DNA of 50,627 nucleotides from Nitrospirota bacterium (GTDB lineage: Bacteria; JACPQY01), in NCBI GenBank assembly GCA_016180645.1, contig JACPAV010000002.1, forward strand, positions 124,001 through 174,627, in the 5' to 3' direction. This document shows positions 14,646-48,853 of the stretch, piece after piece. How positions within the stretch are numbered: position 1 is the first letter of the stretch; each line of letters begins with the position of its first letter. A program made the position numbers and the translations under genes. The notes beneath the pieces were generated by a model. The model searched no databases and was not told the DNA's origin. It worked only from the letters and a program-made list of their open reading frames with translations.

Positions 14646-14856
14646 GGCCTAGCCTAGAAAAAGTCGCGGAGGCATCCTTGCCTCCGCATTATTTGGCGTC
14701 ACCACCAAGCGCAACATCCCTGTTACTGTCCAACTACAATAGGTTGTATTTCTTGTCAACTGAAAACATTGGCTTGTATGCTGCGTTCATTTTGTCCCCA
14801 GAAGGGAATTCGGCAGCGAATTGGTGAACTTGAAGTATCCCTAGAGGATCAGGCCG

Positions 14857-23754: not shown

Positions 23755-24914
23755 GAATCATGACCGTTTTCGGGACGCGTCCCGAAATCATCCGTCTAAG
23801 TCTCATTATCCAACGCCTGGACGCTCTGTGCGAGCAAACCCTGGTGCACACCGGGCAGAACTTCGATCCGAACCTGAGCGACGTCTTTTTCCGCGAGCTC
23901 GGCCTGCGGCAGCCCGACGTCCATCTCGACGTGCAGACCGGTGATTTCGCCGATCAAGTCGGCCAGATCCTCAGTCGAGTGGGGAAGAGCATGACGCAGG
24001 TCAATCCGGATCGCGTGCTGATACTCGGCGACACGAACAGCGGTCTTGCAGCCATCGTCGCCGCCCGGCTAGGAATTCCCGTCTTTCACTTGGAAGCCGG
24101 CAACCGATGCTACGACGACCGGGTGCCCGAGGAAATCAATCGTCGCATCATCGACCACTCGAGCAGCATCCTCATGCCCTACACCCATCGCAGCAAGGAA
24201 AATCTCCTGCGGGAGGGCATCGATCGCGACCGCATTTTCGTGGTCGGCAACCCCATCTATGAGGTGCTCCAGACCTACGGAGACAGGGCTCAGCCTGACA
24301 TCGTCCTCAAGCGGCTCGGATTGAACCGGGGCGGCTACTTCTTGGTCACGCTCCACCGCGCGGAGAACGTGAATGACGCGTCCCGCCTGGCGAACATGCT
24401 CGACGGGCTGCGCCGGCTTCATGAAAGTTGGGAGGCACCGATCGTCGTCAGCTTGCATCCTCATACGGCCGACCGAATGAGTCGGTACGGATTGCAAACG
24501 GATTCGAACGGCATCCGACTGCTCAAGCCGCTCGGCTTCCTCGATTTCGTCGGACTGGAACGCAACAGCAGGTGCGTGCTCACCGACAGCGGCACCGTAC
24601 AGGAAGAATGCTGCATCCTCGGAATACCCAACGTCACCCTCCGGGACGTCACCGAGAGGCCGGAAACCATCGAGTGTGGGAGCAACATTCTGACCGGCTC
24701 AGACCCGGACGCCATCGTCCGAGCGACGTCGGTGGCGCTCCGCTCGCCGGCCGCTTGGCCCGTTCCGTCCGAATATACCACCCCCCAAGCCTCATTCACC
24801 GTTGCCAAGATTGTTCTGGGCTACCACCGGGCGGCGCAGGTCTCCGGCGCCCCGGCCTCGTTCGAGCCTCCGAGCAGTGAAGCGTTCGGCTCATGCGCAT
24901 CGTCTTCCTCCTAG
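23751..24914 (+). CDS. Non-hydrolysing UDP-HexNAc 2-epimerase (WbjD/FnlC/WecB family)
   Basis: GTRPEIIRL, HTGQNFD, LGDTNS, HLEAGNRCYD..PEEINR, TDSGTVQEE and TERPE. Confidence 0.9.
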   Translation: MRIMTVFGTRPEIIRLSLIIQRLDALCEQTLVHTGQNFDPNLSDVFFRELGLRQPDVHLDVQTGDFADQVGQILSRVGKSMTQVNPDRVLILGDTNSGLAAIVAARLGIPVFHLEAGNRCYDDRVPEEINRRIIDHSSSILMPYTHRSKENLLREGIDRDRIFVVGNPIYEVLQTYGDRAQPDIVLKRLGLNRGGYFLVTLHRAENVNDASRLANMLDGLRRLHESWEAPIVVSLHPHTADRMSRYGLQTDSNGIRLLKPLGFLDFVGLERNSRCVLTDSGTVQEECCILGIPNVTLRDVTERPETIECGSNILTGSDPDAIVRATSVALRSPAAWPVPSEYTTPQASFTVAKIVLGYHRAAQVSGAPASFEPPSSEAFGSCASSSS

Positions 24915-27537: not shown

Positions 27538-28830
27538 TCACCGAAGCAACTCCGCATTTTCTCTGAGAAAGGTCGTGCCGATTCGCGCGGGGTGATCCCG
27601 ACAGGGATGACCGGCCGGGAAGATCGCGCGGAAGGACCTGCGGAGATCTTCCTCCTGTTCGGTGGTTCTCCAGGCGCCGTCCAGTCGGTCGATCATCTCT
27701 TGAACCACGGCCAAGATCTCCTCCGGGGTATTCTGGACCACCTCGACCCCTGCCTTGACGTAGTCTTGGGTGTACTGCCAGTTATCGGCGCCCAGACGCA
27801 CCATCTCTCGAAAGGTCAGAAACCGCTTTTCCATGATGGACCAAAGTTTCTTCGGAACGAACAGGTCCTTCGAACCCACCGGTACGAATCGCAAGGGAAC
27901 CACGTTCGTCTTGACGGTGGGCACATTGAAAATGTAGGAGATGCAGATGATACCCGACTCACTGCCCAGGAAAAACCGGCATTTGGCGGCGAGGTAGATA
28001 TCTCCGAAATCGGTCCGCCCGCGGTTGGCGTAGTCGAAAACATGCTCTTGGCCCGGCGGCAGGGAACCTTCGACCACGTAGCCGACCCGAATCGCCTGAT
28101 GCCCTTTCCCCGTCAGAAACTTCGCCGCAGGAAAGAAGTGGCTCAAGTCACAGTCTCGGTAGTCGTGGTAGCTCCACTCCGCGCGAGACTTGTACGGATG
28201 GATCTTGTCCAGGTACGCCTTGTCGCGAGCGTGGACACAGACAAAGGGGACATCGGGAGCCGCTCCCATGTTCGCCAGCGTCTCTCTCCCTCGTCTTTCT
28301 TCCTCCGCGGTGAACGAAAGCTGGGGGACGGACCCGTGGAACTCGTGCAACCAACTGTCAAAAGGCCTGAAATGATCAACCCAGCCGTTCCATGATCGGA
28401 ACGGGGAAAGCAGCGGATCGTGTCGCATCGCCTCGTACACTTGAACGAGGAAGGGGCTCTCCACGACAGGCAGCTTTCGCTTGATCATGGCCAACAACTG
28501 GCGGTTGGAAGGCTCACGGGTCACGAAGACGTAGCGGCCCCTGTTCCATTCCTTTCCCGAAGCTTTCCTTCTTAGGAAGAGCTCCGTCACCGTTGCGAAG
28601 GGGCCGATCCTGCCCGAAGGGATTTTGCCGATTCTCAAGTCCACGAACCATCGTACCGCGCTGAACCCCAGTCGGCCCACCAGGCCCACCGCCAAGTACA
28701 GCGGGCGCATGGGGGGCCAGAGGCCACAGCGCCAGCAAGCCCTGCGAATCCTCCACAGAAGGGACGGCGGTTGAGCCGCCTTGAACGCCTGATATCCCCT
28801 GCGGATGCTCCCGAGCGGAAATCGGCTCAT
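27538..28830 (-). CDS. Putative glycosyltransferase, TIGR04372-like
   Basis: GRIG, VCVHARDKAYL, HDYRDCD, DIYLAAKCRFFLGSESG and NTPEEILAVVQEM, recognised from memory of this family. Confidence 0.75.
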   Translation of the reverse strand: MSRFPLGSIRRGYQAFKAAQPPSLLWRIRRACWRCGLWPPMRPLYLAVGLVGRLGFSAVRWFVDLRIGKIPSGRIGPFATVTELFLRRKASGKEWNRGRYVFVTREPSNRQLLAMIKRKLPVVESPFLVQVYEAMRHDPLLSPFRSWNGWVDHFRPFDSWLHEFHGSVPQLSFTAEEERRGRETLANMGAAPDVPFVCVHARDKAYLDKIHPYKSRAEWSYHDYRDCDLSHFFPAAKFLTGKGHQAIRVGYVVEGSLPPGQEHVFDYANRGRTDFGDIYLAAKCRFFLGSESGIICISYIFNVPTVKTNVVPLRFVPVGSKDLFVPKKLWSIMEKRFLTFREMVRLGADNWQYTQDYVKAGVEVVQNTPEEILAVVQEMIDRLDGAWRTTEQEEDLRRSFRAIFPAGHPCRDHPARIGTTFLRENAELLR

Positions 28831-29432
28831 GGTGTGCTCTCGGATCGAGAGGGAAACGGGACTCCCGCCGCAGGGCGGCCACCCGCTCCTGCTTTCACCG
28901 GGGGCGACAAGTCGGCTACTCTCAAGATGTGGTCGACCGCCGCGGAGAGGTCCGGAACATGACGATCCGCCCCAAGGGCGCCGCTATAGTCCCGCTCGAT
29001 GAGAACTGTAGTGCAACCGGCCGAACGCCCCGCGCCGATATCTCTCCATCGATCGCCGATGAGGAAAGACCGGCGGCAATCAAGATCCCAGCAGCGCGCA
29101 GCCTGATGGAGAAGACCCGGTCGGGGCTTGTGACAGACACATCCCTGCGACGGTTCATGCGGGCACACATAGATACCGTCAACGGACAACTCCTTTTCCA
29201 GTCGGCGGTGCATCTGATGGAGAATTTCCGGGTCCAGCTCGCCTCTTGCGAGTTCCGGCTGGTTCGTGACCACCAGGGCGAGAAATCCCGCTCGCCGGAT
29301 TCGGGCCACTTCTTCCTTCGCGCCGGCCACCAGAACAAACTCTTCCAGCGTCAACGGGGCGGAAGGCCGGCCCCGCCGAAAAACGGGCTCAATCAGCACC
29401 CCGTCCCGGTCAAAGAACACCGCTCTTTTCAT
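28827..29432 (-). CDS. gmhB: HAD-IIIA phosphatase, D,D-heptose-1,7-bisphosphate phosphatase-like
   Basis: AVFFDRDGVL, VVTNQP, CPH...CVCHKPRPG and IGDRWRDI. Confidence 0.85.
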   Translation of the reverse strand: MKRAVFFDRDGVLIEPVFRRGRPSAPLTLEEFVLVAGAKEEVARIRRAGFLALVVTNQPELARGELDPEILHQMHRRLEKELSVDGIYVCPHEPSQGCVCHKPRPGLLHQAARCWDLDCRRSFLIGDRWRDIGAGRSAGCTTVLIERDYSGALGADRHVPDLSAAVDHILRVADLSPPVKAGAGGRPAAGVPFPSRSESTP

Positions 29433-29516
29433 GATATTCGATGAAAGGGGGCCGTCATGCCTCATTCGCGGCCGGCGGTCGGACGTTCCCTCGTGTTCGG
29501 ACCATCGTGGCCGCGC

Positions 29517-30392
29517 TCAGGAACGACCGTTCAGGAGGTTGAGCCGCCGGCGCACATTCTCATCAGGCAGGCTGGAGAGATCGAGTCGTCGCATGGAGTA
29601 GATCTCCGACTTGTTGATTTCCGGAATCAGAGTCGAAAACTCCGGACTGGCCCAGGGGTCATGACGCGCGCTGATGGTTTTTCCCGTCAATCCCCGCGCC
29701 TGTTCCGATAGAAGGTACCGGACGCATTCAACCGGAACCTGCATCGGAACCGACCCCTCACGCAGTTTCTTTTCCGTTTCGTCGTACTGCGGGCCGGCCC
29801 GCTCCCGCCCTGCCCGCAAAGTGCGTTCGTGAATTTCCGTGGCCACGAATCCCGGGGCCACGGCATTGACGGCGATGCCCCTGGGCGCCAGCTCCGCCGC
29901 CACGTTCTCCGTCAGGCGGATGACGGCCGCTTTCGAGGCCGCGTAGGCGCTGTAGTTGGGGAAGGGATGGAAGGCCCCCCCCCCGGAGAAGTTGATGATC
30001 CGCGGCGATCTCTCCCGAACCATGAGAGGAACCGTGTGTTTGATCATGAAGAAGGTCCCGAAGAGATTGACTTCAAATGTTCTCGTCCACTCCTCCGATT
30101 CCACCGAAATCGCCGGGCCGATGGCCCCGAACCCGCCCGCGCAATTGATCAGCGCGTCCACCCAGGCCGTGTGTTTTCGGATCTCCTCCGCGAGGGTCTT
30201 GACCTGCGGCTCGCGCGAGACGTCACAGACAAAAGCCGTGGTACCGGGGAGGCCCCGGACGACCTCCTCCAACCGATTCACCCGCCGCGCGCACAGGTAG
30301 AGGACGTGGCCGTCGGCGGCCAGCGACCGGGCAAGCGCCGCGCCAATTCCGGAACTTGCGCCGGCGATCACGATGTGACGGCGATCAGACAC
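29517..30392 (-). CDS. Short-chain dehydrogenase/reductase
   Basis: AGASSGIG, INCAG, FSGGGA, YAASK and VAPGFV. GTG start at 30392. Confidence 0.88.
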   Translation of the reverse strand: MSDRRHIVIAGASSGIGAALARSLAADGHVLYLCARRVNRLEEVVRGLPGTTAFVCDVSREPQVKTLAEEIRKHTAWVDALINCAGGFGAIGPAISVESEEWTRTFEVNLFGTFFMIKHTVPLMVRERSPRIINFSGGGAFHPFPNYSAYAASKAAVIRLTENVAAELAPRGIAVNAVAPGFVATEIHERTLRAGRERAGPQYDETEKKLREGSVPMQVPVECVRYLLSEQARGLTGKTISARHDPWASPEFSTLIPEINKSEIYSMRRLDLSSLPDENVRRRLNLLNGRS

Positions 30393-31695
30393 GCCCCTCA
30401 CCCATCGCAATCAACTCAAATCCGTTCCGCCGCGCCTCGGCCCGCTTGAGAATCCCCACGCAGTCGATGATGAGCCGGCGTCGCATCCTCCGGCCGACGG
30501 CGGCATAGTCGGTGGCGACAAACTCATCCCAATCACAGGTCACCAGCAGGCAGTCCGCTCCTTCAACAACACCCAAAGCATCACGCTCAACCGCCAGGCC
30601 TTCGAAACCGCCGGGAAGGCCCGCCACCGGATCGTATACTCGAAGTTCCGCCCGGCCTTGTAAATCATGGAGAACCCGGACGGCAAAAGAATTCCGCGTC
30701 GATTGGGTATTCTTCTTGTAAGCCAAACCCCATACGCCGATCTTGGGAGGGGAGGCGTGCGGAAAGACGCGCGCGCTCAATTGCCTGTGTACCCACCGAT
30801 ATCGATCCCGATTGTGGTCCAGGATGCAGCGAACCAGGCCCGTTTCGACTCCGTTCTCCCGGCTCGCGGTTTCCAGTCGGGACAGATCCCGTTCGATATT
30901 CCCTCCGGCAATGCCGAGACTCGGTCGAAGGTAGGCGTGGGGGCCGATCCGACGGTCGGATCTGAGAACCGCGATGACGTCCTGCATGCTGGCTCCCGTC
31001 GCCTCGCAAAGGTCTGCCATGTGATTGGAAAAAGTGACCGAAAGGGCGAGGAAGTAGTTGACGGCCGCCTTCGACAACTCGGCGCTTTCGTAGGACATGA
31101 CTTGGACCGGGCAAGCGAAGTGCGACACAATGGATTGCAACCGCTGAGGCAACGCCTCATCGGGGTGCTCACAACCCAAGAGGACCCGTTCCGGACGGAG
31201 ACTCCGTTCCACAGCTTGTCCGATTACCAAAGTCTCCACCCAATTGAACAGTTCAAAGGTGAGACCGGGTCTGGACGCGCAAATGGTATCCTTGAGTTCA
31301 CGCGTGTAGCCCGTGGGAACCTGACTCATCAGAAGAAGCAGGGTTCCGTCGGCAAGTTGAGGGATGACCTTGACCACCAGTTCATCAAGTTTGGAGAGGG
31401 CCGAATGGGAATCGGGGCCGCTCCCGGTGTCCAGGGAGAGAACGACCGTCCCGCAACTCTGGATGGACTCGAAGGCGGAGAGAAGGGGAAACCTCTCCCG
31501 GCTCTTGTCCCACAATTCCTGAAGGCCCGGTTCATGAATCGGGAATCGCCCCGCCTTGAGATCCGAGATGAGGTCCGCGTCTGAATCGACGGCCACGATG
31601 CTCATTTCCAAAGACGACCAGCAGACAGACGAGACCAGGCCCAAATGAGAAAGCCCCACGAAGGCAATCCGCTCTTCTGCGCGAGCTCGCGTCAT
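30385..31695 (-). CDS. UDP-glucose/GDP-mannose dehydrogenase homologue lacking the catalytic Cys
   Basis: PIHEPGL, SAELSKAAVN, DRRIG, WGLAYKKNT...RNS and YDP. The GGxC loop reads GIAGGNIERD. The ATG at 31695 overlaps the upstream stop. Confidence 0.85.
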   Translation of the reverse strand: MTRARAEERIAFVGLSHLGLVSSVCWSSLEMSIVAVDSDADLISDLKAGRFPIHEPGLQELWDKSRERFPLLSAFESIQSCGTVVLSLDTGSGPDSHSALSKLDELVVKVIPQLADGTLLLLMSQVPTGYTRELKDTICASRPGLTFELFNWVETLVIGQAVERSLRPERVLLGCEHPDEALPQRLQSIVSHFACPVQVMSYESAELSKAAVNYFLALSVTFSNHMADLCEATGASMQDVIAVLRSDRRIGPHAYLRPSLGIAGGNIERDLSRLETASRENGVETGLVRCILDHNRDRYRWVHRQLSARVFPHASPPKIGVWGLAYKKNTQSTRNSFAVRVLHDLQGRAELRVYDPVAGLPGGFEGLAVERDALGVVEGADCLLVTCDWDEFVATDYAAVGRRMRRRLIIDCVGILKRAEARRNGFELIAMGEGRV

Positions 31696-32738
31696 TCGGT
31701 CTCCCGGCATTCTGCGAAGCGCGCAGCCTGCTCGGCCAGACGATGGAGGCTCGACGAGATGCGCCAGTCGCCGTCCAGGCTGGTGTGGCCCTCCTGCACG
31801 CGCCGCTCGAACTCCTTGATATCCAGTTCCCAAGTCGGATCCTCCATTTCGATCCTGTCCGTCGTCTCGACCGGCCTGCCGCTGGGGAGGACCCGACGGT
31901 GAAGCTCGAACGTCGCGGCCCCCCATTTGGTCAACCCCGCCGCATGGAGGGAACCCTTTTCCCCGTAGACGTCCACGCGGAATGTGTTTTTCCACATGAT
32001 GTTCGCGCATTCGAAGAAAAATCTCCGGTCCGGCGTCGCAAAGAGACAGTAGTCGTATGCCTTGGATTCCAACCTGCGGGCGTCCACCAAGCGGAACCGT
32101 GTGTCCTGGATTCCGAACAAATAGCCGGCCAGATCGATCAGATGAGACCCGAGGTCTTCGATCACTCCGTAGCCCGACTCCCGCCAGGTGCCCAACCAGT
32201 TCCGAACCGTCCCGTTCCCGTACTGTATCCGCGCGTGGTAGATCTCTCCCAACGTGGATTCGTCCAACTTTCGTTTGAGCAGCCGGATGTGCGGCTCAAA
32301 GCGATGGTTGTAGGAGGTGTACCATACGCAGCCGGACTGGGAGGCCAGGGCCGCTGTGGAGCGTGCGATTTCCAAATCCGGAAACACCAGCGGTTTTTCC
32401 ACAAGCACATGCTTCCTCCTCGCCAGGCATTCCCGAAGAAGCTTCAGCTTCTCTCCGTTCGGAACGCAGAGGATCACCGCATCGTATCCGGCGTCCGGCG
32501 CCTGCTCGATTCCTCGGTGGTCCGCCTCCCGATTTTCCGGGTCCACGGTCGCCACGCATGCGCGGCCGAGAATTCGACGCCGCTTCCCGCCCAAATGGCC
32601 CAACCCAACCAGAAGATATCTCAGCCGGAACGGGTTCAGATGGACCTCCGCCGGACCGGCGCGATTCCCCAACCGGTTCGCTCCCGTACGGGGTTCCCCT
32701 GGGGCGGAATTCACAAGGCTCCTCTGCTCCCCGACCAC
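31692..32738 (-). CDS. Gfo/Idh/MocA family oxidoreductase (true start probably further downstream)
   Basis: LVGLGHLG, HVLVEKP, YNHRFEP and GVIEDLGSHLID. Confidence 0.85.
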   Translation of the reverse strand: MVGEQRSLVNSAPGEPRTGANRLGNRAGPAEVHLNPFRLRYLLVGLGHLGGKRRRILGRACVATVDPENREADHRGIEQAPDAGYDAVILCVPNGEKLKLLRECLARRKHVLVEKPLVFPDLEIARSTAALASQSGCVWYTSYNHRFEPHIRLLKRKLDESTLGEIYHARIQYGNGTVRNWLGTWRESGYGVIEDLGSHLIDLAGYLFGIQDTRFRLVDARRLESKAYDYCLFATPDRRFFFECANIMWKNTFRVDVYGEKGSLHAAGLTKWGAATFELHRRVLPSGRPVETTDRIEMEDPTWELDIKEFERRVQEGHTSLDGDWRISSSLHRLAEQAARFAECRETE

Positions 32739-32749
32739 CCCTGAGCGGG

Positions 32750-34378
32750 CTACAGCGGCTGGGCCGCGCGGGGCTTGGGCATGCCCGCTTCAAGGCTGCC
32801 CGGTGGCGCCAAGGGCGCCGGTTTTCGCCGCGCGCTCCTGCGCGCCCCCCAGCCGGCCATCTCCTGGGCCGATTGGAGCCTGGCCATGACGCCGGGCGTA
32901 TCGATCGGAATATTGCCTTCCTGTTCACAAGCCACCGCGGCCGCCAAGCTCCCCAGGATGGCGGCCTGAACGATATCGCCCGTTCGCGCCAACACCAGGC
33001 TGGCCGTGGCGAGCAGGGCATCGCCCGCGCCCACGGCGTCCACCAAGCGCTCCACAAAGGTGTCAAGGTGAAAGAAACTGCGTGGACTGCTTTTCGGGCT
33101 GCGATAGGCCAGGATTCCACGCGCCCCCAATTTCAGAAGTACGAATCGGGCCCGGGCGGCCGTCATGAGTCGCTGGGCGAGGGATCGCACACCCGAATCT
33201 TGGTCGCCCAGGGCGAACCGGGCCTCGTGCTCATTGGGCGTGATGAGGTCGAACCCCTTGAAGTCGAGGATGTTTCCCCATCGGCTGCTCACTTGGCTGT
33301 CTGCCACTTTCAACGATCCGGGCGGAATGGCCTCCGTGAGTATCTTCACCGAGTCGCTGTGGAAGAGGCCGTGTCGGAAATCGCTGAACACAACCAAGTC
33401 CGAGGGAAGATTCCGAATGAAACCCTGGATGACCTCGATTTGTCTGGCGGCCAACGGGCTGTTGTCCAGGGTATCCACCTGAAGCAGTTTGTAGTTTCCC
33501 GCCCAAAAACGCTCTTTCAGGATGGTCGGCCGATGGGACTCTCGAACCGCGTTGACGTGGACGCCCGAGGATTTCAGGTCTTCCATCGCCATTTCGGCGA
33601 GCGAATCCTCCCCCAGAACGGTCGTAAGCGTCACCTCCGCTCCCAAGCTCCGGAGGTGCTTCGCGACAATACCCGCCCCCCCGACGAACGTCTTGGATTG
33701 CTCCAATCGAACGCTGAAGGTCGGAGTCTTCGTGGCAGGGCCAAGGAGAGCGCAGTAAGAGTACTTGTCCACGATGGTGTCCCCTACGACGTGAACGTTC
33801 ACGCCGGCCAAACTTTCCAGAGTCTTGCGGAGCCGCCCAAACGCGACCCCCTCGGCCTCCATGAGGGTGCCCAGCTTCTCCAATGTCAGGCGGGGCTTGT
33901 GTTGCGCCAGAATTTTTGTCGATGAATAGACGACGTCTCCCGGGGAGAAGATGAACTTCCCCCCATAGCTCGATACCACCTCGATCTCCTTTTGGGTCTT
34001 GGGATGCACGCCGGCCGCGGAGTATTCGTACCCCTTGACAAAACAATCGGGCTGGAGACTCCTGATGTTTTCCAGCGGCTCCGGACGAAAATCCACGATC
34101 ACATAATCGACAACCTCCAACGCAGCGAGATTGGCGGCGCGCAACTCGTGCGGAACGTAGGGCCGGCCTTCACCTTTGTCGATGAATTCGTCCGAAGTCA
34201 CGCTTGCAACCAAAATATCCCCGTGGGTCTTGGCGTAGAGCAGGTGACGGATATGTCCGGGGTGAACGATGTCGAAGGCGCCGTGACACATCACCACCGT
34301 CTGCGTCCGAGGACGGGGACCGATGACGGCACGCAGTTCCTCGACGGTCTTGATCTTGTGCTTGTATGGGTCGAACAT
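32750..34378 (-). CDS. Bifunctional nucleotidyltransferase / PfkB sugar kinase (HldE/RfaE-like, reversed domain order)
   Basis: N-terminal CHGAFDIVHPGH (HxGH) and YSST. C-terminal VGGAG, TPNEHEAR and DAVGAGD. Confidence 0.88.
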   Translation of the reverse strand: MFDPYKHKIKTVEELRAVIGPRPRTQTVVMCHGAFDIVHPGHIRHLLYAKTHGDILVASVTSDEFIDKGEGRPYVPHELRAANLAALEVVDYVIVDFRPEPLENIRSLQPDCFVKGYEYSAAGVHPKTQKEIEVVSSYGGKFIFSPGDVVYSSTKILAQHKPRLTLEKLGTLMEAEGVAFGRLRKTLESLAGVNVHVVGDTIVDKYSYCALLGPATKTPTFSVRLEQSKTFVGGAGIVAKHLRSLGAEVTLTTVLGEDSLAEMAMEDLKSSGVHVNAVRESHRPTILKERFWAGNYKLLQVDTLDNSPLAARQIEVIQGFIRNLPSDLVVFSDFRHGLFHSDSVKILTEAIPPGSLKVADSQVSSRWGNILDFKGFDLITPNEHEARFALGDQDSGVRSLAQRLMTAARARFVLLKLGARGILAYRSPKSSPRSFFHLDTFVERLVDAVGAGDALLATASLVLARTGDIVQAAILGSLAAAVACEQEGNIPIDTPGVMARLQSAQEMAGWGARRSARRKPAPLAPPGSLEAGMPKPRAAQPL

Positions 34379-34390
34379 GATGGCCTCCTC

Positions 34391-35596
34391 TCAACGGGGC
34401 GGTTGTTCCGGCTGACGGCCGCTTGCGTCCACCGCTCGGGACCGGGCCTTTCGGCCCGGCATCCCAACGGCGGAACGCGATCCACGGTAGAATCGACGAA
34501 TTCGGGCGACCACGGTTTCTCTCTCTTCCATGGTCAGTTCCGGGAAGATGGGGAGACTCAGGATCCGCCCGGACAACGCCTCCGTCAGGGGCAGATCCCC
34601 GGGACGGTAGCCGAGTTCACGGGCAGCTTCTTGCAGATGAGTGGGAATCGGATAATGGATGCGCGTCTCGACGCCGGTCCGGGAAAGGTGCTCGCGAAGG
34701 GCATCGCGTCGGTCGGCCTGAACCATGAACGTCTGGTAAACGGCGAATTCGTGGTCTCGGTCCGCCGGGACCTTGACGACGTCCGACAGTACTTCCCGGT
34801 AGTAGGATGCCAATCGCCGACGTTCCTCGATCCATCCATCCAGTCGCCGCAACTTGATCCTCAGCCATGCCGCTTGGACCGTATCGAGCCGGCTGTTCAC
34901 GCTCCAGAATTCGCATTCTCCAGGGCTTCGCAGTCCGTGATTTCTCCCCTTCACCAAGAACCGATAGAGGGCCTCGTCATGGGTCGTCACGATCCCCCCG
35001 TCCCCGCAGGCGCCCAGGTTCTTGAGCGGATGCAGGCTGAAACAACCGACCGTTCCGATGGAGCCGACCCGCCTGTCGCCCAGCCGGGCGCCGACGGCCT
35101 GCGCCGCGTCTTCAACCACGAAAAGCCCATACTCCCGGGCCACGGCCATGACGGCGTTCATGTCCACCGGTCGACCGGTGAGGTGCACCGGCAGGATAGC
35201 CCGAGTCCGGGTTGTGATCGCCTTCACAACGGCCTCAGGATCGATGTTGAAGTCGTCCCGGACGTCCACAAAGACCGGCCTGGCGCCGACCCGCACGATG
35301 GCGGCCACGGGCGCCATGAAGGAATTGGCGACCGTGATCACCTCATCCCCCGCACCAATGCCCAGTCCCCGGAGGGCGAGAATGAGGGCGTCCGTCCCGT
35401 TTCCGACGCCGACCGCATAGCGAGTCCCGCAGTAGGCGGCGAACTCCGCCTCGAAAGCGGAGACTTCCTCTCCGAGAATGGAATCGCCGCGTGAAAGAAC
35501 TCCGTCTGCCGCAGCCCATAGCTCGGCCCGCAAGGGACCGTGCTGTCTTGCCAGATCAATGAAAGGGACCCTGCCCCCCATCTTGCTTGAAGCCAT
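34391..35596 (-). CDS. DegT/DnrJ/EryC1/StrS PLP-dependent sugar aminotransferase
   Basis: GNGTDAL, ILPVHLTG, EDAAQA, FSLHPLKNLGACGDGG, NSRLD and LSLPIFP. Confidence 0.92.
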   Translation of the reverse strand: MASSKMGGRVPFIDLARQHGPLRAELWAAADGVLSRGDSILGEEVSAFEAEFAAYCGTRYAVGVGNGTDALILALRGLGIGAGDEVITVANSFMAPVAAIVRVGARPVFVDVRDDFNIDPEAVVKAITTRTRAILPVHLTGRPVDMNAVMAVAREYGLFVVEDAAQAVGARLGDRRVGSIGTVGCFSLHPLKNLGACGDGGIVTTHDEALYRFLVKGRNHGLRSPGECEFWSVNSRLDTVQAAWLRIKLRRLDGWIEERRRLASYYREVLSDVVKVPADRDHEFAVYQTFMVQADRRDALREHLSRTGVETRIHYPIPTHLQEAARELGYRPGDLPLTEALSGRILSLPIFPELTMEERETVVARIRRFYRGSRSAVGMPGRKARSRAVDASGRQPEQPPR

Positions 35597-35598
35597 GC

Positions 35599-36654
35599 TC
35601 AGGACAGGCGGACTTCCTTCATCCGCCGCACGTTGTAGTACCGGCTGTCATCCAGCGATCCGGGGAAAGATCCATGGCTGAAAGCCCGACAGAGGTCCAT
35701 CACGGCGTCTCGAACCGAGCGTTTAGGTCTGAAGCCCAGTTCACGCGCGATCTTCTCGGAAGAGACCTGGTACGACCGGATGTCGTCGGAGGGCACCGTT
35801 TCAACTTGGATGTCCCCCCGTTCCGGGACGACTTCCCGAACGACCGAGCGGACCCTCTCGGCGATCTCCGCGATGGTGTAGACTTCCGTGCCCACATTGA
35901 ACACTTTGCCCGCAATGCGCTCGCCCGGCTCTTCGAGCAGGCGGAGGTACAGATCCACCATGTCCTCCATGTGGATATTCGGTCTCTTCTGCATCCCGCC
36001 AAACACGGTCATCCGTCCTTTTCGAACGGCGTGATTCGTCAGCAGGTTGACGGTCAGGTCGAAACGTTGGCGAGGAGAGCAGCCGCACACCGTTGAAGGC
36101 CGGATGACGACCACGGTGAAGTCCCGCGACTGCTCGTCCAACAGGAGCGGCTCGCACAGTCCCTTGTATCGGTTGTAGTCCGTAACAGGCAGGAGGGGAT
36201 GTTCCTCCGTGACCGCCTCCGCCTCGCTCACCCCGTATACACTCGCGGTGGAGGCGTAGATGAAACGGCGAATTCCGTTCTCCTTGCTGGCCCGAACGAG
36301 CGGCCCGAAGGCATCATAGTTGATGGAGCGGCTGAGCGTCGGATTCAATTCGAAACTCGGATCGTTCGAGATGCAGGCCAGATGAATGACCGCGTCACAT
36401 CCCCGGACCGTTTCCACCAGGAGATCGCGATCTCTTATGTCACCTCGGATTTCAACCAGACGGGGATCGCTCCTCACGCCCTCGAGCGACTCCCTCCCGT
36501 AGAGGTAGAGATCCAGGACTCGGACGCCGTATCCCAGCGCCAAGAGCCTGGCGACCAGCACACTTCCGACGTAGCCCGCTCCCCCCGTAATGAGGACCGT
36601 TTGCCTCCTCCCGGACGGCTGCGGATGTTCTGGATGGCCGGTCGATTGCTCCAC
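35599..36654 (-). CDS. NAD-dependent epimerase/dehydratase
   Basis: ITGGAGYVGS, HLACISNDP, YNRYK and RPNIHMED. GTG at 36654, just after the GNAT stop, is the likely start. Confidence 0.87.
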   Translation of the reverse strand: MEQSTGHPEHPQPSGRRQTVLITGGAGYVGSVLVARLLALGYGVRVLDLYLYGRESLEGVRSDPRLVEIRGDIRDRDLLVETVRGCDAVIHLACISNDPSFELNPTLSRSINYDAFGPLVRASKENGIRRFIYASTASVYGVSEAEAVTEEHPLLPVTDYNRYKGLCEPLLLDEQSRDFTVVVIRPSTVCGCSPRQRFDLTVNLLTNHAVRKGRMTVFGGMQKRPNIHMEDMVDLYLRLLEEPGERIAGKVFNVGTEVYTIAEIAERVRSVVREVVPERGDIQVETVPSDDIRSYQVSSEKIARELGFRPKRSVRDAVMDLCRAFSHGSFPGSLDDSRYYNVRRMKEVRLS

Positions 36655-36658
36655 GAGA

Positions 36659-37759
36659 CTAGGCCCGGTAGGCAGGGAAGAAATCCCCGGTCGGCGCCCC
36701 GACCTTTGGTGGGTGCTCAGCCGCCCACTCCTCTTCAAGTCGCGCGTACGCCACCGGATCATGGATTCTCTCCCCGATGAAGTAGTCCACCCGGGTTCGC
36801 GCAAACTTGCTTTTGAAGCGGAGCAAACCGTCCTGGTCCGCGGCCGCTCCTCCCAGATGAAGCCATTCTTTGCCCGCCTCCGCCATCTCCGACGCCGCCG
36901 TAAACATCAGAAGCTCACCCGGACACAAAGGGTTCACCCCCTCCAGAGTCCCCGCCAAGTGGTAGTGGACATATTTGTCGCCATGGAGGAAGAGCGCGGC
37001 GGACAACACCCTCCCGCCCTCGTCTCTGGCGAAATAGAGAGAGACCCAACGATCATCGAGGCCGCCCAAGCGGGAGAAGTAGTCGGAAGAGAAGTAGTAG
37101 AAGGATTTCGCCCTGCGGCGTTCCATCGTCCCCCAGTAGATGCCGCAGAAAATGGAAAGGTTGGGGCCGGTCATCGGAACGCGTGTCACCTGGATGCCCC
37201 GCCGCTGGGCGATCCTCACGTCCCGCCGCGCCGATTTCGCAAATCCGTTCAGGATCCCGTCCGGTCCTTTCCGAAGATCGATCACAGGATGCGGTGATGG
37301 ACCGCGCAGGTCGAAGTATCCGTTCCAGTCTTCGTGATTGCGGAGCAGCGGATGGAACCGGACGAATTCACTCACGATACCCTCCGCCTCGCAGAACTCC
37401 GAGAAATCGCGCCGAAAATCCGACCGCACATCGCTCACGTCCATCGGAGTTTCAGCGTAGGCCACCGGTCCGCCGTACTCGAAGGGACTCGTGAGATCGA
37501 ACTGGGGCCTGGGAGAGGAGCCGCCCAGCGGCAATCCTTTCAAAGGACGGAGAACAAAAGGGTGGATGACGAGGCCCTGCGCATGCCGGTAGAGACAAAG
37601 CGTGATGCGTCCTCCGTCATGATCCGCCGTTGCAGCCAGGTAAGAGATCTCGTAGTAGACGTCCCCTGCCTTTCGAACGGCGCGCTCCCACTCCTCCTGG
37701 AAGGGAGGACGGCCCGTGCCTCCGTCCAAGAAATGAACTCGAAGAGTAGCGCGGGACAT
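36659..37759 (-). CDS. GNAT/FemAB-like acyl- or aminoacyl-transferase
   Basis: SPFEYGGP, EFVRFHPLL, YYFSSDYF, HYHLAG and HLGG...LLRFKSKF. Confidence 0.8.
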   Translation of the reverse strand: MSRATLRVHFLDGGTGRPPFQEEWERAVRKAGDVYYEISYLAATADHDGGRITLCLYRHAQGLVIHPFVLRPLKGLPLGGSSPRPQFDLTSPFEYGGPVAYAETPMDVSDVRSDFRRDFSEFCEAEGIVSEFVRFHPLLRNHEDWNGYFDLRGPSPHPVIDLRKGPDGILNGFAKSARRDVRIAQRRGIQVTRVPMTGPNLSIFCGIYWGTMERRRAKSFYYFSSDYFSRLGGLDDRWVSLYFARDEGGRVLSAALFLHGDKYVHYHLAGTLEGVNPLCPGELLMFTAASEMAEAGKEWLHLGGAAADQDGLLRFKSKFARTRVDYFIGERIHDPVAYARLEEEWAAEHPPKVGAPTGDFFPAYRA

Positions 37760-38961
37760 CAGATGAGAACGTGGTGTAGGTTGGGATCAGGGTTCGTAAT
37801 CTGGTGAAGGATGACGTTCGTTTCATCCAGGAAACAGCCGGCGGGGCATTTCCGTTTCAGATCGATTTTCCGGGCCACGTCCTGCCGCCGTTTCGACTCC
37901 CAGATCTTGTCCATGGAATCCTCGTAGATGTTGCCGATGACAAACTCGGGATCCCCACCGTGATCGATGCAGAGGTATACGTTGCCGTCCGGTTCCATCA
38001 TCGGCACCAGAGGGTGGGCCCGGCACCGGTCGTAGCGCTCCGCTCCGTTGAATTGCTTCACATACGCCCGACGGATTTGATCTACCTTTACGTGCACTTC
38101 GAACCGCTCGGTTTGGTAGCGAGACTGGATGTCCAGCAGCCGCGACACCATGGCCGCCGCTTGCTCCTCTCGCGCGTCCTCCGTGGAATGAAGGTCCATG
38201 GAAGAAACCGTGATGTGCTCGTTGCTCCGGTTGCGCTGGAGCGATTTGAAGACCACGTAGTCGACACCCACCTCGCCGAACAGGGCGGCGAATCCCTCGA
38301 AATCCTCCTCGGTGAGGGGCGAGCAGATCATCTGGCAGCCGATGTGAGGGTAGAGGCTGCCGCGTCGGCGCTTCTCTTCGACGAGATGGCGGATATTGCG
38401 CAGGACCCGATCGAAATCCGCCCGGCCCCTCCCGTTGGAATTCGCGGCCGCGTGCCAGCGCGAATGCAGGGATTTCGAGGCGGCATCCACGCTGAACCGG
38501 ACGGCCACGGCCCCCGCAAAGAGGGATGGGAAGAACTTGTCCGTGAGATGTTCCCCGTTCGTGAACAACATGTATCGAAGGCCCAGGTCGCTCGCCGCGT
38601 CGAGCATGGTCCTGGCCGAGGGGTGCAGGAGGGGCTCCCCTTGACCTGCGATGGTCAGGCCCTGGGTCCCCCCCGCGGCGAGGATCTTGACGTTTCGGAT
38701 CCAGACGTCAGGCTGGATGATCAGTTCATCCTTCGCCTTGAGGGACGGCGTCTTGCGGGTCGTGTACGCCGAACTGCACCAGGCGCAACTGTGATTGCAG
38801 TAGGTGGTAAAGCCCGTGCTGACGCTGACCGGCCAACAGTCGCCTGTCTTCACAAGGGAGGCCACAGCCTCCGGGTGATAGAAAATCTTTCTTCGGTCAT
38901 ACCTTGACAGGCAGAACGCCGTCGCGTCCTCCGTCGTGGGTCGGCGCATCTCCGCGCTCAT
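37759..38961 (-). CDS. Radical SAM protein with C-terminal SPASM/twitch Cys cluster
   Basis: CNHSCAWC, GQGEPLLHP, FTNG, RFSVDA and C-terminal CRAHP...VYLC...IGNI...CPAGC. Likely ATG at 38961. Confidence 0.87.
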   Translation of the reverse strand: MSAEMRRPTTEDATAFCLSRYDRRKIFYHPEAVASLVKTGDCWPVSVSTGFTTYCNHSCAWCSSAYTTRKTPSLKAKDELIIQPDVWIRNVKILAAGGTQGLTIAGQGEPLLHPSARTMLDAASDLGLRYMLFTNGEHLTDKFFPSLFAGAVAVRFSVDAASKSLHSRWHAAANSNGRGRADFDRVLRNIRHLVEEKRRRGSLYPHIGCQMICSPLTEEDFEGFAALFGEVGVDYVVFKSLQRNRSNEHITVSSMDLHSTEDAREEQAAAMVSRLLDIQSRYQTERFEVHVKVDQIRRAYVKQFNGAERYDRCRAHPLVPMMEPDGNVYLCIDHGGDPEFVIGNIYEDSMDKIWESKRRQDVARKIDLKRKCPAGCFLDETNVILHQITNPDPNLHHVLI

Positions 38962-38971
38962 CACGCCATGT

Positions 38972-39748
38972 TCATGCGGCCGGCGATGGGCCCGCGGCCG
39001 AAGCCGGTTCTTGCGAAAAGGTGAAAGTGGAGAACGAGTAGTCTCCCCCGTACCCGATCCGTTCGAAACATTGATGCCATTCCCCCATGCTCCTGAACAC
39101 CTGGACGGTTGCGCCCCAGTCATGCAATCCTTCCTCCTCTGCGGGGCTGGCGTAGCTGGCTACATTCAGGAAACAAAGTCCACGGCTGACTCTCATCAAC
39201 TCCCGCACGGCCTGATCCGCCCGATCTTCATCAAGGTTGTGAAGGGTGCCGATGGACACGACCAGATCGAAACTGTGATCCGCAAAGCCCAAGGCATGGG
39301 CGCTCATGCGGGAAAACCGACCCCGCACCTCCGCCTTGGCGTGCCGGAGGGCATATGCGCTGATGTCGCATCCAAAGGCGACCGGGGCGCCGTCCGCTCC
39401 CAGTCGGCGCTGGAATTCGTACGCCAGGAATCCTTTGGCGCAGCCCACATCCAGTATTCGCTGCCCCGGCTTTAGATCGTAGTGGCGGATCATGGCCTCG
39501 GCCACCGTGCCCCACCGGCCGTCATAGTAGTAGCCGCCGTATCCCAGATCCGAATCGAAGTAGGCCTGCCCAAACCGCAGCAAGGAGGCCCTCTGTTCTT
39601 CCGTAAGACTCCGCCTGATCCGGAGTCGACGAAGGCGGTCCGCCCTGCCGTGCGCGGAGTCCCCTCCGCCGACCCCTTGCAAGAAGTCGACCCTTCTAGG
39701 AGCGCTCACAGGTTGTGGAAGGATCTGAGGGGTCTTCCCCCGATCCAA
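38972..39748 (-). CDS. Class I SAM-dependent methyltransferase
   Basis: GYGGYYYDGRW, ILDVGCAKGFL and FDLVVSIGTLHNL. Confidence 0.85.
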   Translation of the reverse strand: MDRGKTPQILPQPVSAPRRVDFLQGVGGGDSAHGRADRLRRLRIRRSLTEEQRASLLRFGQAYFDSDLGYGGYYYDGRWGTVAEAMIRHYDLKPGQRILDVGCAKGFLAYEFQRRLGADGAPVAFGCDISAYALRHAKAEVRGRFSRMSAHALGFADHSFDLVVSIGTLHNLDEDRADQAVRELMRVSRGLCFLNVASYASPAEEEGLHDWGATVQVFRSMGEWHQCFERIGYGGDYSFSTFTFSQEPASAAGPSPAA

Positions 39749-39882: not shown

Positions 39883-42114
39883 TCATGGCCCCATCATCCC
39901 GATGGCGGAAGGCGCCTCCGGAACGGCAGCCACGCCGCGAACCGGTTCGAAAAGGTCCGGGGGCTGTTTTCGCCATCCTTCAAGCGAGGACCTCGAATTC
40001 ATGTGCCACACTTTGTCCGCCCCCCACTGTTTGACGTACTTTTCCGCCGCCTGCTCCATGGCGGATTCCCGGTTCAGGCCGGCTTTGAAGCCTTCCAACA
40101 ACCAACGGAGACAGGTTCCCATTCGCTCCGCCGCGCATCCGTCCCGGTAGGGATCGAGATCATCCAGAAGGGAGGTCCAATGCCCAAATCCCGGAATCCC
40201 TTTCGGGCGCCGCCAGTGCTCCTGGCACGCCAGCCATAAGGACTCCCAGTCTTGGAAGACCACACGGCCCGGACCCAGTTCGTACAGCGGACTCTCCTTC
40301 CAGCCTTCCCGATCCAGCAGGAGTGTAGGCACGCCGGCCAGCGCCGACTCGCAACCGGCCGTTCCGGACCAGAGATGCCCATGGATGGCGATATCGGACG
40401 CCAAGGCGGCGGCGGCGGGAGGATACGCCCCATGGGGGTTCCCTTCCTCGAAAACGAAGCACCGACCGGTCGCCTCCGCTTCCGCCAATTGCTCGGCCAC
40501 GGGGCCGAGACGCCGTCTGAGGGTGCCGGGGATTTTCGGCTTCAGGACCAGTCCCAGCGTGGGCTCCTCCAGCAGCTTCTCAAGCAGAAAGGAATAGTTC
40601 TCTCTCATTCGTTCATGCCCCAGGGCATGCCATCGACCATCTTCGGCCGAGCCCTCGTCAAAATACGCCAGGATTCGTGATGCGCCGCCGGTCTTGAGCT
40701 TTTCCCTCAACTCCGCCGCCTGTGACCGCAGGAGCGGGAAACGGTGGTCACCCAGGTATCCCGTCACGAAAAAATAACGGAAGGCCGAACCGACCTCGCG
40801 CTCGGCCTTCGCCCTCGACGAGGAAAAGCCGAACAGGAGATCGCTGTAGGAGGAGAGTCCCACCGACAGGTCGTGAGAGCGTTGATAAATCACCGTCACT
40901 CCGCCCAGACTTCTTAACGCATCGACGATGGCGCACTGTCTTGGCTCGGCGTTGAACCAGGACACGTAGATTTTGACGTCCTCCGAATCAAACAGATCGG
41001 TCCAGTAGGCCCTGAGCAATGTGTAGGTAAAGGACATCTCATCCAGCCATTCCCGGGTGCTCCATGCCGGCCCCTCCGTTGCACCGCCTCTGAGCAGGCG
41101 CAGAGGCGCGTAGCGCGGCCGATGGGTGAAAAGCGGTATGGCCGCTCCCCGTCGAGCTCCAGGAGAAAGCGCGATGGCATTCATTCCAGACCGTTGGGTG
41201 AGCCGCAACCTCGGTTCATCGAGCGGGTCGGAGGGCAGTCCGAAGACGAGAAGCAGATCTCGAGCCGGCAAGGACGACTGTTGCCAAAAAAACACATCGG
41301 AGTACCGCTCCGGGTATTCCAGATTGAAATGGCCGTAGGATTCGGCCGCCAGTCGCGGCCCTTGATCCATCCGGGCCGGCTTCCGCGGGTCGGTATTCCA
41401 GGAAGCGGCAGCCGCCCTCAATTTCTTCCGAGACTCCCGTCTGCCGGAGTGGAGGGCCGCGCGCATTCGGTCGAGGGCGTCCGTCAATGGCATCTCGGCC
41501 ACGTCCACCCCGAATCTACGAGCGTACAACCGGACGACATCCATGAAAGGGCGAAACCGCATGAGGAGCAGCACGGCCGCCCATCCACGTTTCTCAACGG
41601 CCGCTTGCCTTGCGCAGATCCGCACAAGCCACAAAGCTCTCCAGAACGACTTGGGCGTCGGGAGTCCCACCTCCGCAAGGAGCGTTTTCATCAGGAAGCG
41701 ACCCAACCCCTCATCTTGAGGCGGCGCCGAATGAACCTCCCTCAAGCCAGGGACGTTGAGGAGCCACTCCCGGATTTCCGGCAGGTCCCGATATCGCATC
41801 GACTGCCAAGTGGAGTTGCCGGATTCATCCCGCAGCTCATCCAAACGAAAATCCAATCGGACCAGCTTGACCCCGACGCTTTTCGCCGTGACGTTCATGA
41901 GCCAGCGGCCAACGGGGCCACCCCCCATGTCCAGATAGTAGCAAATCTCCACCCGTCGGCCCCGTGACCATCCTGTCCAGGCCAGGCGGGGCAGGACATC
42001 GAACAACCAGGACGCGGCATGGATCTCTTCAACGACGACGAGAATCCCCTTGGGGGCGGTGGAGGAGCGATCGCCGGTACCCGTCGCTGCCTTCTTTCCT
42101 CGAGCCGCCTGCAT
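39883..42114 (-). CDS. Large hypothetical glycan-locus protein (possible GT-B-fold transferase)
   Basis: About 743 aa in operon context. It has YFFVTGYLGD, LVLKPK, TAGCESALAGVPTLL and DPYRDGCAAER, a GT-B-like C-terminus. Confidence 0.55.
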   Translation of the reverse strand: MQAARGKKAATGTGDRSSTAPKGILVVVEEIHAASWLFDVLPRLAWTGWSRGRRVEICYYLDMGGGPVGRWLMNVTAKSVGVKLVRLDFRLDELRDESGNSTWQSMRYRDLPEIREWLLNVPGLREVHSAPPQDEGLGRFLMKTLLAEVGLPTPKSFWRALWLVRICARQAAVEKRGWAAVLLLMRFRPFMDVVRLYARRFGVDVAEMPLTDALDRMRAALHSGRRESRKKLRAAAASWNTDPRKPARMDQGPRLAAESYGHFNLEYPERYSDVFFWQQSSLPARDLLLVFGLPSDPLDEPRLRLTQRSGMNAIALSPGARRGAAIPLFTHRPRYAPLRLLRGGATEGPAWSTREWLDEMSFTYTLLRAYWTDLFDSEDVKIYVSWFNAEPRQCAIVDALRSLGGVTVIYQRSHDLSVGLSSYSDLLFGFSSSRAKAEREVGSAFRYFFVTGYLGDHRFPLLRSQAAELREKLKTGGASRILAYFDEGSAEDGRWHALGHERMRENYSFLLEKLLEEPTLGLVLKPKIPGTLRRRLGPVAEQLAEAEATGRCFVFEEGNPHGAYPPAAAALASDIAIHGHLWSGTAGCESALAGVPTLLLDREGWKESPLYELGPGRVVFQDWESLWLACQEHWRRPKGIPGFGHWTSLLDDLDPYRDGCAAERMGTCLRWLLEGFKAGLNRESAMEQAAEKYVKQWGADKVWHMNSRSSLEGWRKQPPDLFEPVRGVAAVPEAPSAIGMMGP

Positions 42115-42129
42115 GCGTGTCCCTCGCAA

Positions 42130-43209: not shown

Positions 43210-43351
43210 CCTTGCTTCCTTTCAAGGGGTTGGCCGGACAGTCTCCGGCCTTCCGCCTAGTTTGCGGCGCCGGCCGCCGCCGGGCCTTCAGGATTCCGGC
43301 CATCCGGGCGCCGGAGGAGCCCGCCAAGCGCCGGTGGGCCTTCCACCCTTT

Positions 43352-48804: not shown

Positions 48805-48853
48805 GCCGGCCCGCCCCCGGCCCACGCCACCGCCCCCGAGGGTCGGAATGAGG

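Follow-up and report, generated by a model that had tools for sequence, protein, structure and literature searches.

Lincomycin and celesticetin owe their octose to GDP-D-alpha-D-lincosamide, and in the reports on this route (PMC4351081, PMC12945683) a transaldolase (LmbR), an isomerase (LmbN), a kinase (LmbP), a phosphatase (LmbK) and a guanylyltransferase (LmbO) are described, together with LmbM, LmbL, CcbZ and CcbS, which turn the GDP-octose into GDP-lincosamide. Here we have analyzed a cassette of seven genes (positions 28827–36654) that brings together much of the same set of protein families within a surface-glycan operon, in a 50,627-nt stretch of DNA from a Nitrospirota bacterium (assembly GCA_016180645.1, contig JACPAV010000002.1, positions 124,001 to 174,627), hereafter the window. 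The steps of lincosamine synthesis on which the first-pass annotation of this window had drawn agree with those reports. A second described system, the route to ADP-L-glycero-beta-D-manno-heptose (GmhA, HldE, GmhB, and HldD), shares with the cassette a PfkB kinase, a cytidylyltransferase-like transferase, a HAD-IIIA phosphatase and an epimerase of the extended short-chain dehydrogenase/reductase (SDR) type, and with the relatives of the cassette in other genomes also a SIS isomerase. The combination of a UDP-glucose dehydrogenase family member, a Gfo/Idh/MocA oxidoreductase and a DegT aminotransferase is, in turn, the family trio of the WbpA/WbpB/WbpE pathway to UDP-2,3-diacetamido-2,3-dideoxy-uronic acid. 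Finally, the tailoring of GDP-heptose for the capsule of Campylobacter jejuni (PMC10680097) has in common the oxidation, epimerization and reduction of a nucleoside diphosphate (NDP)-activated higher sugar by extended SDRs, but there GDP-alpha-heptose comes from other enzyme families and no dehydrogenase-like/Gfo pair takes part.

Pfam and NCBIfam scans show that seven intact minus-strand genes fill the cassette, transcribed from high to low coordinates and separated by −26 to +104 nt, which confirms the coordinates and order given in the first-pass annotation. The first gene, EPI (35599–36654), codes for an extended-SDR NDP-sugar epimerase/dehydrogenase (Pfam Epimerase, 124 bits, and GDP_Man_Dehyd) and starts with a GTG at 36654, 4 nt past the stop of the FemAB-like gene upstream. 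Its top match in the Protein Data Bank (PDB) is 6vo6/6vo8 (142 bits), presumably the GDP-heptose C4 dehydrogenase Cj1427. It is followed by a pyridoxal phosphate-dependent aminotransferase of the DegT family (34391–35596; Pfam DegT_DnrJ_EryC1, 356 bits) with the Schiff-base lysine motif SLHPLK, which matches PDB entry 7b0d at 356 bits and then DesV (2oga), QdtB (3frk), and WbpE (224 bits); in the full-text literature we found no paper naming the entries 6VO6, 6VO8, or 7B0D. NTK (32750–34378) is a fusion of a nucleotidyltransferase (CTP_transf_like, residues 31–156) and a PfkB kinase (residues 196–490), GFO (31692–32738, with a likely start at the GTG at 32645) is a Gfo/Idh/MocA NAD(P) oxidoreductase (Pfam GFO_IDH_MocA), and UGDHn (30385–31695) is a UDP-glucose/GDP-mannose dehydrogenase homologue with all three UDPG_MGDP_dh domains. 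The last two genes code for a classical SDR (SDRc, 29517–30410; adh_short, 170 bits), a probable ketoreductase acting on a tailoring intermediate, and for a HAD-IIIA phosphatase of the GmhB/HisB-N type (28827–29465). The catalytic motifs look intact as read from the translations, with GGAGYVG and YNRYK in EPI, HPGH and GAGD in NTK, GLGHLG and EKP in GFO, GASSGIG and Y-AAS-K in SDRc, and DRDG, GDRWRD and the zinc loop CPH..CVC in the phosphatase. Across the 30 GFO sequences of alignment A2, the GxGxxG and EKP motifs and His168 are invariant.

An alignment of UGDHn (A1), scanned against species-representative genomes, gave 75 loci, nearly all of them in metagenome-assembled genomes. According to the record titles the carriers belong to Methylomirabilota/Rokubacteria, Chloroflexota, Planctomycetota, Acidobacteriota, Nitrospira, Bacillota, Verrucomicrobia, Myxococcota, Bdellovibrionota, Cyanobacteria, Actinomycetota, and several candidate phyla, and one is a Thermoplasmata archaeon. 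Gene frequencies were counted over the 43 loci with at least 6 kb on both sides (full-flank loci), catalytic residues over 74 loci, and SDR variants together with the FemAB and radical-SAM genes over 70. These counts come from BLAST labels (identity of at least 45% for EPI and NTK, 40% for DegT, and 33% for the methyltransferase MT1), since greedy calls of open reading frames (ORFs) are messy at high G+C, and Pfam was applied to the clean loci L030, L043, and L056. It is evident how a same-strand order recurs, namely EPI, a second epimerase (SDR2), NTK, GFO, the dehydrogenase homologue, a third, extended SDR (SDR3), the phosphatase and a methyltransferase. NTK is present in 42 of the 43 full-flank loci (with identities of 47–60% seen across loci), GFO in 41, SDR2 in 37, EPI in 36, SDR3 in 30, the HAD phosphatase in 26, and MT1 in 24. 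Dozens of unrelated genomes have the same genes together on a single strand, and their grouping is thus not accidental. The variant found in the window is a minority one, with a classical SDR after the dehydrogenase homologue in seven of 70 loci (48–57% identity), five of which also have DegT, whereas SDR3 fills that position in 48 loci, 11 of them with DegT. One of the DegT genes that stand in tandem in L056 shares 51% identity with the window DegT (tblastn), and the closest relative, L001, shares the neighbors of the window.

Two further genes recur in these relatives. A transaldolase is found in 35 of the full-flank loci and a SIS isomerase in 33 (either in 39, both in 31), and they share the strand of the dehydrogenase anchor in 45 of 47 and 46 of 49 loci, respectively. 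In the three clean loci, Pfam places a TAL_FSA transaldolase and a GmhA-like SIS inside the cassette, and the TAL_FSA and SIS_2 assignments also hold in L001. The transaldolase of L056 passes TIGR02134 (331 bits, cutoff 282), and its SIS protein falls far short of the gmhA cutoff (39 bits, cutoff 209), so that the cassette SIS is a divergent isomerase. The first-pass annotation had stated that the transaldolase and isomerase steps are missing from the window, and tblastn with the proteins of the relatives indeed finds neither.

UDP-glucose 6-dehydrogenases such as 4a7p and 3gg2 share with UGDHn the three-domain fold, as judged by sequence, and the catalytic Lys, Asn, and Asp, but they carry a nucleophilic Cys in a GGxCxxKD motif where UGDHn has Asn266. 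In the alignment with 4a7p (155 bits) the motif GYGGSCFPKD falls on GIAGGNIERD, while Lys209, Asn213, and Asp270 are retained, and the Rossmann motif reads GLSHLG (GxSxxG) in place of GxGxxG. The protein had been called "Cys-less," which applies to the catalytic residue but not to the whole chain, where other cysteines are present. Asn is nearly invariant in a 23-sequence alignment of UGDHn (with one His), and across 74 loci the position is occupied by Asn in 71, His in three and Cys in none, with Lys209, Asn213, and Asp270 kept in all of them. When 1.84 billion cluster representatives were searched exhaustively, 1410 matched at E ≤ 1e-30, and among the best 150 of these the position holds Asn in 102, Thr in 27, His in 15, Cys in four, Gln in one, and Val in one. 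By these counts the loss of the cysteine is an old and conserved trait of a subfamily and not the product of decay. An Asn-type enzyme would be expected to stop after one hydride transfer, i.e., a two-electron oxidation, and not to form an acid; a single hydride transfer is all that the conversion of a secondary alcohol to a ketone requires, and no thioester-forming Cys would then be needed.

His-type and Thr-type cysteine-less relatives exist beside the Asn type (representatives P0128–P0276), and many Thr-type representatives carry a Trp in the Rossmann motif (GxWxxG), as do all seven Thr-type sequences among 15 mostly high-G+C representatives inspected singly. A word-indexed search gave 885 relatives of UGDHn at E ≤ 1e-10, the best of them 42–55% identical and all with generic names among the matches listed. 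No Lmb or Ccb name was found among the 120 matches listed for UGDHn out of these 885, nor among the 120 listed for a five-sequence high-G+C alignment (A4). A search of a plasmid collection with the dehydrogenase gave only generic relatives (about 31% identity).

The dehydrogenase homologue is closely tied to its Gfo neighbor. In the window the stop of GFO overlaps the start of UGDHn as ATGA, which couples their translation, many of the related loci show a 4-nt overlap between this pair, and GFO adjoins the dehydrogenase homologue in 41 of the 43 full-flank loci. A natural fusion is also found in L033 (9083–11239, plus strand), where one 718-residue protein has both the GFO and the Asn-type dehydrogenase domain sets. 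The overlap, the adjacency and this fusion argue that the two proteins would work as a unit. Two other proteins, P0134 (719 residues) and P0276 (723 residues), have a match to the UGDHn query that begins only at residue 297, and they may be further fusions. A prediction of the complex from alignments A2 and A3 scored 0.00 in two runs made without controls, and speaks neither for nor against binding.

Set against the route to GDP-lincosamide, the relatives of the cassette have all nine functions by family or described role, and the window alone has seven of the nine, in six genes, plus an extra classical SDR. At family level the window encodes the kinase, nucleotidyltransferase and phosphatase, an LmbM-type extended-SDR epimerase, an LmbS/CcbS-type DegT aminotransferase, and the pairing of a UDP-glucose dehydrogenase-like protein with a Gfo/Idh/MocA protein seen in LmbL and LmbZ/CcbZ. 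The differences are that here the kinase and nucleotidyltransferase are fused and HldE-type with a nucleotide that is probably not GDP, that additional SDRs and a methyltransferase are present, that the window has no counterpart of the transaldolase LmbR and the isomerase LmbN, and that lincosamine belongs to an antibiotic cluster while these genes lie in a glycan operon and are spread over many uncultured phyla and an archaeon. We take LmbP and LmbO to belong to families other than the HldE type, and it is on this that the exactness of the first-pass claim of the same family set depends: the set is real, but the fused HldE-type kinase/nucleotidyltransferase would depart from it in two of the steps. 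The lincosamine-like reading as a whole has kept its family set and its glycan setting and has gained the transaldolase and SIS of the relatives, whose presence in syntenic cassettes strengthens an octose product.

We hold with moderate confidence that the cassette supplies the surface glycan or glycoprotein of this operon with an NDP-amino-deoxy higher-carbon sugar, most likely an octose, which would be built along the lines of lincosamine and activated by an HldE-type protein. The substrates, regiochemistry, nucleotide and acceptor that we infer for such a pathway would be as follows. A transaldolase would join a pentose phosphate and a ketose-phosphate donor into octulose 8-phosphate, which the GmhA-like SIS would isomerize to the aldose, both steps being encoded beside the cassette in most relatives and not in the window. 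The PfkB domain of the fused protein would phosphorylate C1, the GmhB-like phosphatase would take off the distal phosphate, and the N-terminal nucleotidyltransferase domain would form the NDP-sugar (by its family ADP- or CDP-, not GDP-). After epimerization by one or more extended SDRs, the Asn-type dehydrogenase homologue would oxidize C6, the first exocyclic carbinol and a secondary alcohol, and its Gfo/Idh/MocA partner would complete a dehydration and reduction to a 6-keto-8-deoxy sugar. DegT would transaminate this product, the classical SDR would reduce a different keto group, and the TIGR04372 glycosyltransferase next door would transfer the finished sugar. In the antibiotic pathway, a 2020 PNAS study reportedly assigned the 6,8-dehydration to LmbL and CcbZ, two epimerizations to LmbM, and the C6 transamination to CcbS.

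Several observations weigh against this octose pathway. In the NCBIfam scan no cassette protein reaches an equivalog cutoff, so none of them is a recognized, named enzyme and their functions stay unassigned, and the kinase, phosphatase and nucleotidyltransferase are nearest to ADP-heptose enzymes. DegT (any, at 40% identity or more) lies nearby in just 15 of the 43 full-flank relatives, so the conserved core need not yield an amino sugar at all, and the closest PDB relatives of the window DegT are the C3-aminotransferases DesV, QdtB, and WbpE, with no known exocyclic transaminase among them. Neither a transaldolase (tblastn with three cassette transaldolases, E ≤ 1e-3) nor a SIS homologue (tblastn) is found in the 50.6-kb window, and one related locus, L045, has the dehydrogenase homologue and SIS but no Gfo or transaldolase match. 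In the full-text literature, with subscription journals outside its coverage, we found no straight-chain or transaldolase-derived octose in a surface glycan; nor did the full-text literature yield a description of such a cassette.

The main and serious alternative is a modified heptose, on which the activation module bears. NTK has the domain order opposite to HldE, with rfaE domain II at residues 22–159 and rfaE domain I at 188–494, and it scores 174.7 bits on the NCBIfam HldE model (cutoff 521), 146.7 on rfaE_dom_I (cutoff 345), and 95.2 on rfaE_dom_II (cutoff 181.5), its kinase part matching the heptose-7-phosphate kinase 4e84 in the PDB at 76 bits. "HldE-like," the term of the first-pass annotation, is therefore right for the PfkB and cytidylyltransferase-like parts and not for their arrangement. 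The top NCBIfam model of the phosphatase is GmhB (PRK08942, 108.6 bits, cutoff 178), and it passes the Histidinol-ppas domain model (107 bits, cutoff 84), while the heptose_epim model reaches 62 bits among the cassette proteins (cutoff 274.6). From these families the nucleotide on the sugar is probably ADP or CDP and not GDP, and by analogy with HldE the intermediate is probably a beta-1-phosphate.

In a heptose pathway, sedoheptulose 7-phosphate would pass through a GmhA-like isomerase and HldE- and GmhB-like enzymes to ADP- or CDP-heptose, which would then be oxidized at C6 and aminated, for example to a 6-amino-6-deoxy-heptose, and the transaldolase of the relatives would merely raise the supply of sedoheptulose 7-phosphate. 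The top named models (HldE, both rfaE domains, and GmhB), the match of the kinase domain to 4e84, that of EPI to 6vo6/6vo8 and the lack of a transaldolase in the window are all in line with it. As the hydroxyl at C6 is secondary in a heptose too, the loss of the catalytic cysteine would fit a heptose equally well. A search of the plasmid collection with the kinase/transferase gave two paralogues of 33% identity, each in a different cassette, in Azospirillum oryzae (L077) and on pDCAR1 of Solidesulfovibrio carbinolicus (L076), where SIS is present and no transaldolase, Gfo or dehydrogenase homologue is found; such a pairing of the paralogue with SIS also speaks for a heptose. Yet every heptose model is missed widely, by HldE, GmhB and heptose_epim alike, and the cassette SIS, at 39 bits against 209, is distant from GmhA. 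The ADP-heptose route also differs in its domain order, in scores that place the cassette far under the equivalog cutoffs, and in what the cassette adds to it, namely the dehydrogenase-like protein, Gfo, DegT and, in the relatives, a transaldolase. A dedicated same-strand transaldolase in 35 of 43 loci from many phyla is hard to explain if its product were a central metabolite. The lincosamine route uses the UDP-glucose dehydrogenase-like/Gfo pair. With these points on both sides we regard a modified heptose as unlikely on balance, though far from negligible. We know of no described heptose pathway that uses the dehydrogenase-like/Gfo pair.

Two other explanations were considered. The operon is shared with LegB, LegC, NeuC, a PtmE-like CBS-nucleotidyltransferase and a Maf-like protein, so the cassette might serve a legionaminic or other nonulosonic acid pathway, providing a substituent or an unusual aldose to be condensed with phosphoenolpyruvate by a NeuB-type synthase. 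L001 has the same neighbors, L030 has NeuB genes on either side, and the kinase/transferase paralogue of the Solidesulfovibrio plasmid adjoins NeuB-family and pse genes. Nevertheless, NeuB lies within 9 kb in only two of the 43 full-flank loci and NeuC in one, and a nucleotide activation of its own with a glycosyltransferase directly downstream fits an independent donor sugar, which makes the nonulosonic role improbable. A route of the WbpA/WbpB/WbpE type to a UDP-2,3-diamino uronic acid, with a 6-dehydrogenase, a 3-oxidase and a 3-aminotransferase, would account for the three shared families, and WbpE matches DegT at 224 bits and WbpB matches GFO. However, the similarity to WbpB (3o9z) is marginal at 28.9 bits, the dehydrogenase homologue has lost the Cys needed for the four-electron oxidation to the acid, and the companions are others: the kinase, phosphatase, nucleotidyltransferase, transaldolase and SIS would have no role. 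We have rejected this very improbable route for the missing catalytic Cys and the low WbpB score.

The cassette is the distal part of a run of 19 minus-strand genes (49657 to 27538) in which no gap exceeds 142 nt. Its last gene (27538–28830, minus strand), which overlaps the phosphatase gene by 4 nt, codes for a TIGR04372-family glycosyltransferase (NCBIfam, 200 bits, cutoff 45) for which no PDB relative was found. Homologues with 27–39% identity lie near the cassette in L001, L051, L055, L056, L058, L070, and L073, that of L056 having been confirmed separately, and we consider it a candidate transferase for the cassette sugar. Upstream of the cassette the run contains an SDR, NeuC, a methyltransferase, LegB, LegC, an MptE/Maf-like protein and the CBS-nucleotidyltransferase, followed by a 748-residue ORF, a methyltransferase, a radical-SAM/SPASM protein and a FemAB/GNAT-like protein. 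This gene content marks the locus as one for a surface glycan or for protein glycosylation, centered on a sugar of the legionaminic-acid type, and the surface-glycan setting first proposed for the cassette is borne out by LegB, LegC, NeuC, the Maf-like protein and the glycosyltransferase in the same operon.

Some of these neighbors may belong to the cassette in a wider sense. A GalE-type extended SDR at 19569–20561 (minus strand) is 57% identical to the SDR2 of L056 (tblastn), with GalE-like PDB matches at 190 bits, and is a probable orthologue of the second epimerase of the cassette, which sits between EPI and NTK in other loci and 8 kb away in the window. MT1 (38972–39748, minus strand; Pfam), a class I S-adenosylmethionine (SAM) methyltransferase, is a companion of the cassette in other genomes. 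Directly upstream of EPI lies the FemAB/GNAT-like acyltransferase gene (36659–37759, minus strand; Pfam FemAB 48 bits, Acetyltransf_6 35 bits), which one may speculate to be the N-acylase of the amino sugar; together with the radical-SAM/SPASM protein and the methyltransferase (36659–39748, minus strand) it may acylate or otherwise modify that sugar. A counterpart of the FemAB-like and radical-SAM genes was found in none of 70 related loci.

The 748-residue ORF of the operon (39883–42129, minus strand) matches no model in Pfam or NCBIfam and lacks hydrophobic segments. The legionaminic-acid-type set (42130–49657 on the minus strand plus 16546–17616 on the plus strand) includes the PtmE-like CBS-nucleotidyltransferase, an SDR, NeuB and the Maf/MptE-like protein, LegB just missing its cutoff (446.7 bits, cutoff 475), LegC passing it (470.8 bits, cutoff 420) and NeuC scoring over its own; no CMP-sugar synthetase (CTP_transf_3) was found among the 44 ORFs of the window that were scanned. 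In the region 44456–46733 (minus strand) the LegC ORF, as listed, shares 197 nt with LegB, and elsewhere in the operon the radical-SAM ORF shares 152 nt with the methyltransferase; the true starts are probably further downstream. NeuB and an FnlA/WecB-type set lie on the plus strand of the window, the latter at 21789–24914 with an RmlD-like reductase, a PseB/FnlA-like 4,6-dehydratase and a WecB-type 2-epimerase, and it resembles a UDP-6-deoxy-L-hexosamine route. Elsewhere (7845–11185 and 12828–16335, both minus strand) we found a glycyl-radical enzyme (pyruvate formate-lyase-like, 532 bits) with its activase, a radical-SAM protein and a fumarate-reductase-like flavoprotein; these genes point to an anaerobic host.

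The related loci also have particularities of their own. The archaeal cassette, that of the Thermoplasmata locus L030 (784–21106), encloses a sulfotransferase gene, and on its flanks lie two NeuB genes and a second SIS, together with a CMP-sugar synthetase-like gene and a class-III aminotransferase. After the cassette, L043 (12331–15023) has a NUDIX hydrolase and the E1 alpha and beta subunits of a thiamine pyrophosphate (TPP) enzyme, and L056 (16589–21004) an acetolactate-synthase-like TPP enzyme; these TPP-dependent enzymes hint at a two-carbon branching of a keto sugar in some lineages. The Azospirillum paralogue cassette likewise has E1 alpha/beta TPP enzymes, with two DegT genes, a radical-SAM gene and a NUDIX gene, and that of Solidesulfovibrio adjoins its NeuB-family and pse genes.

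To our knowledge, straight-chain octoses come only from lincosamide antibiotics. The octoses that we found reported from polysaccharides are branched at C-4 (PMC4753412). Only tentatively do we extend the octose interpretation of the cassette further, to the window as one variant of a widespread and undescribed pathway that would provide a straight-chain, transaldolase-derived octose for surface glycans in more than 12 bacterial phyla and a Thermoplasmata archaeon, as a counterpart of the lincosamide sugar, with the Asn-type dehydrogenase and Gfo acting as a two-protein, sometimes fused 6,8-dehydratase and possibly with acylation by the FemAB-like protein. Within this extension the glycan pathway would perhaps be the evolutionary source of the lincosamide sugar, and N-acylation by the FemAB-like protein may give a lincosamide-like aminoacyl-amino-octose on the cell surface. 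Even if the product is a heptose, the Asn-type dehydrogenase and Gfo are an uncharacterized enzyme pair represented by at least 100 clusters at 50% identity. If it is an octose, sugars of a class so far associated with only a few Streptomyces antibiotics would turn out to be widely used on microbial surfaces, for the most part in lineages that have not been cultured, and one could test where the lincosamine pathway came from. A large cysteine-less subfamily of "UDP-glucose dehydrogenases," whose current annotation is that of acid-forming enzymes, would then have to be assigned another function. The cassette is thus of interest for glycobiology as well as for the question of how the sugar pathways of antibiotics evolved.

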